Below, piece after piece: positions 39,635 to 41,761 of a stretch of 56,134 nt of DNA. The notes below the pieces were generated by a model that saw nothing but the letters and a program-made list of their open reading frames with translations, searched no databases and was not told the DNA's origin. A program made the translations under genes and the position numbers. The stretch spans positions 336,563-392,696 of the forward strand of contig LBYD01000002.1 in the NCBI GenBank assembly GCA_000995965.1, in the 5' to 3' direction. Origin of the DNA: Candidatus Moranbacteria bacterium GW2011_GWC2_40_12. Its GTDB lineage: Bacteria; Patescibacteriota; Minisyncoccia; Moranbacterales; UBA11712. Position 1 is the stretch's first letter. The number at the start of each line of letters is the position of its first letter.

Positions 39635-41761
39635 ATGAAAAGCAACAGAGGCGCCAAAAACAGGGCGGAAAAATTGCGCAAGGAGATTGACAAATTTCGC
39701 TATGAATATCATGTTCTGGACAAGCCGGAGGCTTCCGATGAGGTTTATGATTCGCTGATGCGGGAACTGCGCGGGCTCGAGGAAAAATATCCCGACCTCA
39801 AGAGGCCCGATTCGCCTTCGCAAAGGATCGGCGGAGAACCGCTCGAAAAATTCGAAAAAGTCAAACACAAGCATCGGCAGTGGTCGCTGGATGACGCATT
39901 TGATTTTTCAGAACTTCAAAAATGGGAGGAAAAAAACTTGCGGATGCTTGAAAAAAAAACATCACAAAACACGCAAAACGTGGCACAGAAATTGGAATAC
40001 TGCTGCGAAATTAAAATTGACGGATTAAAGATAATTCTGACCTATAAAAAAGGATTTCTGGTTCGGGCAGCTACCCGCGGGGACGGCATAACCGGTGAAA
40101 ATGTGACGGAGCAGGTGAAGACGATCCAGAGTATACCCTTGAAGCTGAATACGCCGGTTGAAATAGTCGTCGTCGGAGAAGCCTGGATGAGAAGAAGCGA
40201 TCTGGAACGGATAAACAAAGAGCGGGAAAAGGAGGGTCTGCCGCCGTTTGCCAACTCCCGAAACGCGGCAGCCGGATCGATTCGCCAGCTTGATCCGAAA
40301 ATTACGGCAAAGAGAAAACTAAGTTCATATATGTATGACATTGATGACTTAGGGGAAGAATTTCCTGAAACACAAACAAAAGAACTGAATTTTCTAAAAA
40401 AATTGGGATTCAAAGTGAACGAACATCACAAATTATGCCGGAATATACAGGAGATAGAAAAATTTTTCCGTTCCTGGGAAGACAAACGCAAAAGACAGGA
40501 ATACGGAATTGACGGCGTGGTTGTCAAAATAAACCAAAAAAAGTTGCAGGACGTGCTGGGCTATACCGGAAAATCACCTCGCTGGGCGGTGGCCTACAAA
40601 TTTGTTCCCGAAAAGGTGACCACGGTTGTTGAAGATATCAGAGTGCAAGTTGGTCGGACGGGGGCGCTGACACCTGTCGCCTATTTGAGACCCGTGAAAG
40701 TCGCTGGATCCGTCGTATCACGGGCAACGCTCCACAACGAAGATGAAATAAAAAGATTGAACTTGCGAATCGGCGATACAGTTGTGATCCACAAAGCCGG
40801 AGATGTCATTCCGGAAGTGGTGGAAGTTCTCAAAAATCTTCGCACAGGAAAAGAAAAAGAATTTCATATGCCTGCCAAGTGTCCGATCTGCGGTGGGGGA
40901 GTGAGGAAAGAAATTATCAAACAAAGCTCGGCTTTTTCCACCCGAGAGCTTGGCTCCCGAGTTTCCTCAAAGCCAAGCTTTTCCGCGGCTCACTATTGCC
41001 AAAACAAAAAATGTTTTGCGATAGAAAAAGAAAATATCATCCATTTTGTCTCGCGGAAAGGCTTTGATATTGAGGGGCTCGGTGAAAAAATTGTCGAACA
41101 ATTATTGAGCGAAGGATTGATTTCCAGTGCGGCGGATATTTTTGAACTGAAGACCGGCGATCTTGAGCCACTCGAGCGCTTTGCGGAAAAATCGTCCGGC
41201 AATCTGGTGCAAGCCGTCGAAAAATCCAAAAAAATAGAATTTCCAAAATTTTTGTTCGCATTGGGGATCCGGCACGTGGGAGAGGAGACAGCGGTTTTGG
41301 TGATTCGAAATTTGCGATTAGCAATTGGAATGGATAAGATAAAAAATTTAGATGATATTATCCATTATTTTCCAAAAATCGGCGCGGAAGATTGGATGAA
41401 AATTAAAGGGATAGGCAATAAGGCGGCTGAAAGTCTGCAAAACTGGTTCAATGACAGAGAAAATATCGAATTGCTCAGGAAAATGAGAAATTCAGGCGTC
41501 CGGGTGGAGATTCCCAAATTTCAAATTGCGAATTTCAAATTACAGGGCCAATCTTTCGTTCTCACAGGTGAATTGAAATTGATGACCCGAGACGAAGCGA
41601 AAGAGAAAATCCAAACATTGGGAGGCAATGTTTCCTCGTCAGTAAGCAAAAGCACAGACTATGTCATAGTTGGCAAAAACCCGGGTTCGAAGTATGATAA
41701 AGCGAGGGAATTGGGGGTAAAGATCATTAATGAAAAGGAACTTATAAAAATGATTTCTTGA
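39635..41761 (+). CDS. ligA: NAD-dependent DNA ligase LigA, with a 20-codon repeat insertion in the zinc finger
   Basis: Adenylation motif [10 protein letters not shown] fold, Cys4 finger, HhH repeats, and BRCT (FVLTGEL...). Confidence 0.9.
40923..40982 (+). repeat. 60-nt AAAGC-hairpin element, copy B (in frame inside ligA)
   Basis: aaagctcggctttttcc...ttcctcaaagccaagctttt. The 17-nt left end and 20-nt right end match copy A, with one T fewer in the left-end T run. The length is the same 60 nt. Confidence 0.8.

Follow-up and report, generated by a model that had tools for sequence, protein, structure and literature searches.

An in-frame nested hairpin repeat in the LigA zinc finger of Candidatus Moranbacteria, probably of a REP-like family

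Introduction

How does a dispersed repeat come to lie in frame inside an essential zinc finger, and how does the protein bear it? The question is raised by a 56,134-nucleotide (nt) stretch of DNA from Candidatus Moranbacteria bacterium GW2011_GWC2_40_12 (contig LBYD01000002.1, positions 336,563 to 392,696), here called the window. Within it, ligA, the gene for NAD-dependent DNA ligase, carries a 60-nt nested palindrome, copy E, in its zinc finger. Our answer, which we regard as likely, is that copy E is a small, non-autonomous hairpin repeat of Candidatus Moranbacteria that sits in frame in its host gene, resembles both repetitive extragenic palindromic (REP) sequences, with their paired, hairpin-forming versions (REPINs), and the Rickettsia palindromic elements (RPEs), and would be mobilized by an enzyme like the REP-associated tyrosine transposases (RAYTs). 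The family is dispersed, and conserved housekeeping genes contain about half of the copies found. The window's own genome was examined over these 56 kb; handles such as L002 denote contigs and loci compared with it.

A Nested Palindrome in the LigA Zinc Finger

The host gene and the parts of copy E are arranged as follows.

39635..41761, plus strand: ligA, NAD-dependent DNA ligase, 708 amino acids (aa), host of copy E (open reading frame [ORF], Pfam, and match to structure 2OWO)
40880..41014, plus strand: LigA C4 zinc finger, Cys416, Cys419, Cys455, and Cys460
40923..40982, plus strand: copy E, 60-nt nested palindrome (in codon terms 40922-40981, residues Q430-F449)
40923..40935, plus strand: left arm of copy E, AAAGCTCGGCTTT, its own mini-hairpin AAAGC-TCG-GCTTT
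40936..40968, plus strand: linkers and inner hairpin of copy E (CCGAGAGCTTGGCTCCCGAG), a decayed TTCC-GAGAGC-TAA-GCTCTC-GGAA type, as in L068
40969..40981, plus strand: right arm of copy E, AAAGCCAAGCTTT

Window ligA matches the Escherichia coli LigA structure 2OWO at E = 4e-160 and contains the Pfam adenylation, OB, HhH, and BRCT domains. The Pfam zinc-binding domain (ZBD) model finds no match in it, because the insert breaks the model. Copy E (aaagctcggctttttcc...ttcctcaaagccaagctttt, 40923-40982) falls between CPIC, on the Cys2 side, and YCQNKKC. It is read in the ligA frame as (Q) plus 19 residues plus (S), a Ser-rich peptide of 20 residues. An earlier, sequence-only reading of this DNA had proposed that a dispersed repeat is inserted in frame in the ligA zinc finger, and the ORF (39635..41761) with its CPIC...YCQNKKC bears this out. 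That reading also ascribed the 35 residues between Cys2 and Cys3, versus 14 in E. coli LigA, to an insert of about 20 residues. With respect to E. coli this stands: the alignment with 2OWO has a gap of about 20 opposite the window insert. With respect to the nearest orthologues, in which the spacing is 21-22 residues, it does not: there, the element replaces a 7-residue tip (TGKKGEE), for a net gain of 13 residues.

How might the zinc finger accommodate the peptide? The structure of window LigA was predicted with AlphaFold2 from an alignment of 120 orthologues, 63-77% identical (mean predicted local distance difference test [pLDDT] score, 80). The model has β-strands at residues 422-429 and 449-455. 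Between them, residues 430-447, which are the element-encoded peptide, score below 50 and lack secondary structure. Because this low-scoring segment sits between two strands, the insert is predicted to be a disordered loop at the tip of the Cys2-Cys3 β-hairpin that leaves the four zinc ligands in place; the looping out raised by the sequence-only reading is what the model returns. All four cysteines are invariant in the 120 orthologues. That reading found tolerance of such a repeat unexpected. There is indeed an insert in an essential zinc finger, but the word overstates the case, given that the insert loops out at the tip, the cysteines do not change, and, as described below, the site takes many inserts.

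Could the repeat instead have been collapsed or misjoined into ligA by the assembler? The assembly is of the metagenome type, and repeats are a known source of misassembly. However, the ligA frame is intact with both junctions in frame, and the same insert, in the window's frame (QSSAF...SSKPSFS), occupies the same codon in at least 14 orthologues of 65-77% identity from independent NCBI, JGI, and ENA assemblies. The orthologue alignment and the independent assemblies thus exclude an artifact, and we give a chimera practically no credence.

Beyond the gene, GAATTGTGAATTG-type repeats flank the ligA 3' end (41771-41817 and 41842-41902); another, at 18939-18985, comes after the gene ending at 18963.

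Copies in the Window and Architecture of the Element

Is copy E alone? The 13-nt terminus AAAGCTYGGCTTT, with 1 mismatch allowed, occurs 9 times in the window versus 0.48 expected, and 0 of 100 shuffles reached 9. Altogether, the window holds five element copies, A, B, C, D, and E. The other four, with the host gene of two of them, are these.

1140..2333, minus strand: tsaD, host of copies A and B (Pfam TsaD)
1585..1644, minus strand: copy A, in frame in tsaD, encoding AKARIFPFPTKRPGIPQSQA
1851..1910, minus strand: copy B, in frame in tsaD, with variant arms AAGGTTCGACCTT / AAGGTCGAATCTT, encoding DSTFPFPDYPSGNSSRSNL
14549..14608, plus strand: copy C, intergenic, between two 39-nt terminator-like hairpin repeats (14513-14551 and 14609-14647)
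20214..20273, no strand assigned: copy D, each arm inverted in place (AAAGCCGAGCTTT ... AAGGCTTGGCTTT), inner hairpin ACTCCCGATTTATCGGGAGT

Copies C and E are both 60 nt long. Their right 20 nt are identical, and their left ends agree but for one extra T in copy C; reading both sequences confirms that the element at 40923-40982 shares its two ends with 14549-14608, as had been claimed. The further claim that the ligA copy runs opposite in coding orientation to the tsaD copies is wrong. Because tsaD is on the minus strand and copies A and B are inverted in the window, copies E, A, and B all read AAAGCTCGG...AAGCTTT relative to the mRNA. Copy B has the same reading frame as copy E, and copy A has another. 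Alignment of tsaD with the Protein Data Bank (PDB) shows gaps opposite both inserts. The final ~13 codons of a GT4 glycosyltransferase gene (19084..20256), together with its TAA stop (20254-20256), are contributed by copy D.

The element is built of hairpins within hairpins. Specifically, the 13-nt arms (AAAGC-TCG-GCTTT and AAAGC-CAA-GCTTT) each form a 5-bp/3-nt mini-hairpin alone, and they also pair with each other. Between the arms lie conserved short linkers (TTYCC... and ...GGAATTCCTC) and an inner hairpin that varies by copy. Among 80 copies there are 74 distinct inner sequences, and in 35 of the 80 the inner stem pairs perfectly over 6 bp or more, versus ~1% of shuffles. Arm changes are compensatory: AAGGT/ACCTT in copy B and L156, and GAAGC/GCTTC in L153. 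Folding z-scores of the copies run from -2 to -8, and for copy E the folding energy is -33.7 kcal/mol (z = -5.7) for the minus strand and -21.9 kcal/mol for the mRNA strand. The AAAGCUUGGCUUUGAGG... strand is the better folder, since what is C·A in the other strand is a G·U pair in this one; the mRNAs of copies E, A, and B carry the weaker strand. The element is thus a short palindrome repeated often per genome, as REPs are (the window copies; up to 12 per assembly), and its arms are two inverted units forming a longer hairpin, as in REPINs. Taken as a whole, it has the look of a doublet or triplet of REPs, REPIN-like or like a bacterial interspersed mosaic element (BIME).

A fuzzy match at 3793-3855 was considered as an extra copy and rejected, since its arms are poor and it has no inner hairpin. 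An intrinsic terminator reading of the element was likewise rejected, as no U-run follows the hairpin in either orientation. At the gathering threshold, Rfam matched only rRNA, tRNAs, and a group I intron across the whole window, and nothing at the element copies.

Some neighboring repeats resemble parts of the copies. The 39-nt terminator-like units that bracket copy C are 82% identical, and AAAGCTAAGGTTT, resembling a solo arm, comes after the second. A hairpin family, CYCCGATTTATCGGRG, comprises the copy D inner hairpin (20233-20254) and the sequences at 53631-53648, 53671-53686, and 54673-54690; two of its hairpins fall within a 36-nt direct repeat (53621-53656 and 54663-54698). Inner hairpins of the CCGAC...GTCGG type occur in copy C and in many copies of other genomes, and five hairpins of the CCCGAC-NNNN-GTCGGG type lie just upstream of the 16S rRNA gene, at 50656-50926.

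A Family That Occupies Coding Sequence

How far has the element spread? An exact-pattern scan of one genome per species revealed 74 further copies at 68 loci in 21 assemblies, nearly all labeled Moranbacteria or Moraniibacteriota. Copy numbers and arm variation are underestimated here, because the scan demanded exact arms. The per-assembly maximum is 12 exact copies (MFSH01), and DATGZC01 has 9. The orthologues of window LigA, too, are annotated Candidatus Moranbacteria.

A few carriers bear other names. The element is present in assemblies labeled 'Candidatus Bathyarchaeia archaeon SMAG_U10653' and 'uncultured Bdellovibrionales'. The element loci of DATGZC01 are L005, L026, L028, L033, L049, L059, L060, L063, and L065; further oddly labeled loci are L013, L034, L045, L057, L062, and L070. 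The TsaD protein of DATGZC01 is 69% identical to that of the window. The carriers labeled Bathyarchaeia and Bdellovibrionales are probably mislabeled metagenome-assembled genomes of Moranbacteria.

We counted a copy as coding if it lies within an ORF of 200 or more codons that extends 20 codons or more to either side of it, and used Pfam for spot-checks. By this measure, whose ORF-length criterion affects the fraction obtained, 37 of the 79 copies with enough flanking sequence (47%) are coding. They occur in both orientations and use five of the six frames; the sixth frame of the element holds a TGA. The element is 52-66 nt long. In 34/37 coding copies versus 21/42 others, the fixed termini are 56, 59, or 62 nt apart, distances that together with one flanking base preserve the frame (Fisher p = 6e-5); the test is partly circular, because an uninterrupted ORF defined coding status. 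No gene split out of frame by the element was found: 11 candidates all proved to be ordinary intergenic positions between a gene end and a gene start. A Pfam scan of host ORFs identified 19/20 as conserved housekeeping enzymes. Hosts include leucyl-tRNA synthetase (twice), arginyl-tRNA synthetase (twice), LepA (twice), the CCA-adding enzyme (twice), a Mur ligase, MurB, MnmA, MiaA, radical-SAM enzymes, and LigA at three other positions. Like RPEs, then, this is a palindrome that stands in frame in protein genes without disrupting them.

Do the host proteins contain the extra residues? One could suppose that the 60 nt are removed before the mature protein forms, by an intron- or intein-like process or by programmed bypass, so that the LigA zinc finger is normal. 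The organism does possess other intervening sequences (16S rRNA insertions and a group I intron), and the element is a strong hairpin. Yet precise removal would require neither frame-preserving lengths nor a stop-free frame, and interrupted genes out of frame were not found among the copies scanned. Moreover, a self-splicing intron needs far more than 60 nt and an intein more than 20 aa, and Rfam gives no match. We therefore consider removal highly improbable. Because the lengths preserve the frame, the frames used are free of stops, and genes are not split, we argue, from frame and structure prediction, that coding copies are likely translated rather than removed.

Recurrent Landing Pads in LigA and TsaD

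Does the LigA site receive this element alone? Across the 120 orthologues, Cys2 and Cys3 stand anywhere from 14 to 55 residues apart, and the inserts between them include several unrelated types. In 46 orthologues the loop is short, at 21-22 residues (GGGVKREIIKTGKKGEESAAHY). Besides the at least 14 that have the element in the window's frame, ~7 have it in another frame (SKVRPFP...GIPQGRTF). The Pfam zinc-finger match is kept in 1/120. At the DNA level, the insert of L153 belongs to the element family and has the compensatory arm changes, that of L155 is a different, GC-rich hairpin inside TGKKG^GEE, and that of L154 is a non-palindromic ATACAAA microsatellite. Orthologues without an insert do not carry a homologous loop, which the sequence-only reading would have counted against itself; theirs is the short loop. 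In L004, the empty site has 21 nt (AGKEGEE) at the element position, and it is on this account that copy E appears to replace the loop tip rather than only adding to it.

Insertion has also struck the same place more than once. L156 has a complete element nested inside another with the same arms, and in L157 a canonical element is nested inside an older, decayed one. Both tsaD sites are hot spots as well, with other inserts there in other species. Inserts have thus arrived repeatedly at three landing pads, the LigA zinc-finger site and the two tsaD sites. In a neighbor-joining LigA tree, insert types are scattered among insert-free sequences, although the tree is poorly resolved and the polyphyly could partly reflect interspecies recombination or repeated loss.

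Two side observations concern these sites. In L027 (5038-6260), tsaD appears split into two ORFs exactly at insert site A, a split that a frameshifted insert, a pseudogene, or an error of sequencing could explain. In other species, the ligA zinc-finger site and tsaD site B hold A-rich 'TK'-type inserts that look, at the protein level, somewhat like the intergenic TTCGTA/ATTCGTAA repeats described below; the only 'TK'-type insert read as DNA, in L154, is the ATACAAA microsatellite.

Among five element-carrying orthologues, the element termini are 97% identical, with 120/120 third positions identical. The third positions of the flanking conserved codons are 52-56% identical, and the inner hairpins are wholly different. 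Identical termini within diverged flanks therefore imply recent independent insertion, homogenization among copies, or selection at the nucleotide level. The last of these is central to another explanation, namely that the ligA insert is an old, vertically inherited loop whose nucleotides are kept by a hairpin function (mRNA stability, pausing, processing, or DNA structure) rather than by mobility. The termini, unchanged at third positions between orthologues while the flanks are near saturation, are what such a function would leave. So are the inner stems, which still pair while their sequence changes, and the many intergenic copies that start 1-5 nt past a stop codon and present their better-folding strand in the mRNA. 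A hairpin function fits poorly, however, with coding copies in both orientations, five frames, and unrelated genes, and with the unrelated inserts at the same ligA site, one of them a non-palindromic heptamer microsatellite. Many close orthologues do without any insert, nested copies indicate repeated insertion, and Rfam has no match at the gathering threshold. We judge this explanation unlikely and favor a mobile hairpin repeat.

A Candidate Mobilizer

What could move the repeat? In six related contigs, a gene of ~220 aa of the Y1 transposase family lies directly upstream of ligA, at these positions.

L002, 322-993: Y1 gene upstream of ligA
L004, 6677-7342: Y1 gene upstream of ligA
L046, 58-720: Y1 gene upstream of ligA
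L025, 6733-7386: Y1 gene upstream of ligA
L156, 165-833: Y1 gene upstream of ligA
L157, 2311-2982: Y1 gene upstream of ligA

The two scanned members (L002 and L004) match Pfam Y1_Tnp at 27.2 and 25.6 bits (cut-off 23); the genes of L046, L025, L156, and L157 were recognized via tblastn or precomputed Pfam marks. In the window, a pilin-like gene (38855..39523) holds the Y1 position upstream of ligA. The family shows an HUH motif (NHYHF) together with a conserved Tyr region. Its relatives number 561 in metagenome contigs and 1366 proteins at E ≤ 1e-10, and some members bear the JGI label 'REP element-mobilizing transposase RayT'. An AlphaFold model of the Y1 protein (pLDDT 89) has as its best PDB fold match 4ER8 (E = 1e-4), the REP-associated tyrosine transposase in complex with a REP hairpin, followed by the TnpA proteins of IS608 and ISDra2. 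Related genomes encode one to three Y1 genes, and three paralogues are annotated in Moranbacteria RIFOXYB1_FULL_43_19, an assembly with 12 exact element copies.

Hairpins accompany these genes. A perfect hairpin of at least 6 bp occurs within 130 nt upstream of 70/85 Y1 genes and downstream of 65/85. Usually one sequence stands on both sides; often the gene itself also holds a third copy, in frame. The sequence differs between genomes. Near the Y1 gene of L083, TTTTTCT-AAAGCTTAGCTTT-AGAAAAA occurs three times, a 12/13 match to the element arm. L158 (GCA_001784775.1) encodes the same protein as one RIFOXYB1_FULL_43_19 paralogue (P0167), and its Y1 gene is flanked by TTCCT-AAAGT-YSR-ACTTT-AGGAA (TTCCTAAAGTYSRACTTTAGGAA), the outer stem of which matches the TTTTCC(T) bias to the left of the element. 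The Y1-flanking hairpin of L075 shares its stem with the inner hairpins of L032 and L039 and has different loop bases. Because its arms and inner hairpins resemble Y1-flanking hairpins, the element looks like a composite of REP-type hairpins.

Two arrangements of the Y1 genes may be recorded here. In several contigs, the Y1 gene carries its own flanking hairpin in frame at about residue 68. In L157 (1723-2178), a 151-aa N-terminal LigA fragment (Nlig-Ia and adenylation domain) lies just upstream of the Y1 gene, with full ligA after it; the fragment resembles a partial duplication of ligA that is linked to the Y1 gene.

Sequences next to the element bear on how it moved. The left flank is biased, with T at -6 in 65/79 copies and a pyrimidine at -1 in 75/79. 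The usual left flank is TTTTCC(T), a subset of copies has GGAAAA on the right, and 14/79 copies have complementary (inverted) flanks. Could this be a classical MITE (miniature inverted-repeat transposable element), that is, a deletion derivative of a DDE-type insertion sequence (IS) mobilized in trans through its 13-nt terminal inverted repeats, with a chance likeness to REPs? Terminal inverted repeats, small size, and dispersal in coding and intergenic DNA would suit a MITE, and in-frame intragenic MITEs are known (PMC10969869). What makes this doubtful is, first, that target-site duplications are absent and only the left flank is biased; for lack of such duplications, the element is not a classical MITE. 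Second, an IS with these termini was not seen in the window or the loci examined, though no search was aimed at one. Third, the self-palindromic arms match the architecture of Y1-flanking hairpins, and nesting in hairpin centers better suits the biology of single-stranded hairpins. We hold a MITE origin to be improbable, about as much so as a pure hairpin function.

The notion is instead that copies would move as single-stranded hairpins via a RAYT-like Y1 (HUH) transposase and that new copies would insert preferentially into the loop region of resident hairpins. Loop-directed insertion would account for the nesting as well as for why hot spots persist. Purifying selection would then leave only in-frame, stop-free copies in permissive surface loops. 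Mobilization by RAYT-like Y1 enzymes and insertion into hairpin loops are what we infer from these likenesses. More tentatively, and as something we hold to be possible but short of probable, the family may represent an undescribed REP-RAYT-type system that inserts into hairpin loops, colonizes coding frames, and refreshes its own landing pads (the LigA tip and the two TsaD loops).

Comparison with Known Systems

According to the summary of Ogata et al. 2000 and 2002 in PMC10969869, about half of RPEs lie in frame in unrelated housekeeping genes. The Moranbacteria element resembles RPEs in being a palindromic, dispersed repeat with about half of its copies so placed, putatively translated as an extra peptide; in inserting at fold-compatible positions; and in occurring in small genomes of host-dependent bacteria. 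As a class, it is set apart by length and host: it is ~60 nt (52-66) rather than ~100-150 nt, and its lineage is the unrelated Candidate Phyla Radiation (CPR, or Patescibacteria) of ultra-small bacteria, specifically Moranbacteria, rather than Rickettsiales. For these reasons of size and lineage it is not an RPE proper. It also behaves differently. Five frames are used here, whereas RPEs have one conserved peptide; the hairpins are modular and nested, with a hypervariable inner hairpin; hot spots are common to several insert families, and copies nest. Finally, a candidate transposase family is present here, and we know of no transposase for RPEs.

To the systems of REP, REPIN, or BIME with RAYT (TnpA_REP) (PMC3116915, PMC2817692, PMC8266576), the likeness lies in short palindromes arranged as inverted doublets that fold into a longer hairpin, in Y1/HUH genes present in one to few copies with conserved synteny and hairpins on both sides, in lineage-specific hairpin sequences, and in a transposase model whose best fold match is 4ER8. 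The transposase differs in being ~220 aa long, distant from known RAYTs, and below the NCBIfam cut-off. The hairpin elements derived from IS200/IS605 (palindrome-associated transposable elements, PATEs) and IS608 offer a third comparison. Shared features are small end hairpins, absence of target duplication, and a bias on one flank, as expected for IS608-type insertion 3' of a short target. However, a parent element bearing tnpA/tnpB was not found in the material compared here, the two arms are complementary to each other, as IS608's left and right ends are not, and the target motif amounts to a weak bias.

Which observations weigh against a RAYT-mobilized, REP-like repeat? First, some concern the transposase. 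By tblastn, no Y1/RAYT gene is present in the 56-kb window. A PDB sequence search with the Y1 profile returned only spurious tubulin matches, and the Y1 family scores 23-30 bits against NCBIfam REP_Tyr_transpos, where the cut-off is 80. In L002, L046, L025, L156, and L157, which have the element in ligA beside a Y1 gene, the Y1-flanking hairpins are related to it, not identical, and an exact cognate pair (element arm equal to Y1 flank) was found in none of the contigs compared. Second, some concern insertion. Copy E replaces 21 nt in ligA and so is not a simple insertion; and the ends are marked neither by a target-site duplication, since a check of the flanks of the copies for direct repeats revealed none, nor by a clean empty-versus-filled pair. 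To these are added the poorly resolved LigA tree and the dependence of the coding fraction on ORF length. Third, the GTAG or CGTC tag of classical REPs is absent, and 47% of the copies are intragenic, whereas REPs are extragenic by definition. On the last two grounds, the element is not a classical REP. These points temper our preference for a mobile REP-like repeat, which we continue to find likely.

Other Repeats and Genes of the Window

The 16S rRNA gene (50952-52845) is 1894 nt long versus a model of 1533 positions, and therefore carries insertions; the group I intron match (52789-53163) overlaps its 3' end. A perfect 11-bp hairpin, ACCCTAGAGCCCGGCTCTAGGGT (49161-49183), lies within an ORF (47955..49355) whose syntenic counterpart in L001 and L002 is a Mur ligase. 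Because it resembles the hairpin downstream of the L023 Y1 gene, it may be another REP-type hairpin in coding sequence.

The intergenic repeats built of TTCGTA/ATTCGTAA units occupy 442-503, 32013-32152, 33256-33312, 36103-36157, 36724-36763, and 42184-42323. They include a 140-nt inverted pair, 32013-32152 and 42184-42323, that is 89% complementary. In a run of type IV pilin-like genes (34573-39523), the prepilin methylation motif is encoded by an N-terminal repeat of 94 nt that the genes have in common.

Implications

Protein-coding palindromes have so far been regarded mainly as a Rickettsia peculiarity, and REP and REPIN sequences as strictly extragenic. Our full-text search, whose scope was literature open without subscription, found no report linking REP/RAYT systems or coding palindromes with CPR bacteria. 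Here, one family combines both behaviors in an unrelated, very reduced lineage. Because a candidate transposase accompanies this family, unlike RPEs, the mechanism by which coding frames are colonized is open to experiment.

For those who annotate such genomes, the finding is a warning that in-frame inserts of this kind are real; they explain part of the length variation and of the 'broken' domain matches in CPR housekeeping proteins. They are also natural experiments on the amount of disorder that an essential zinc finger can bear. If the REP-RAYT-type reading is true, the family would systematically supply the proteins of highly reduced genomes with new surface loops.

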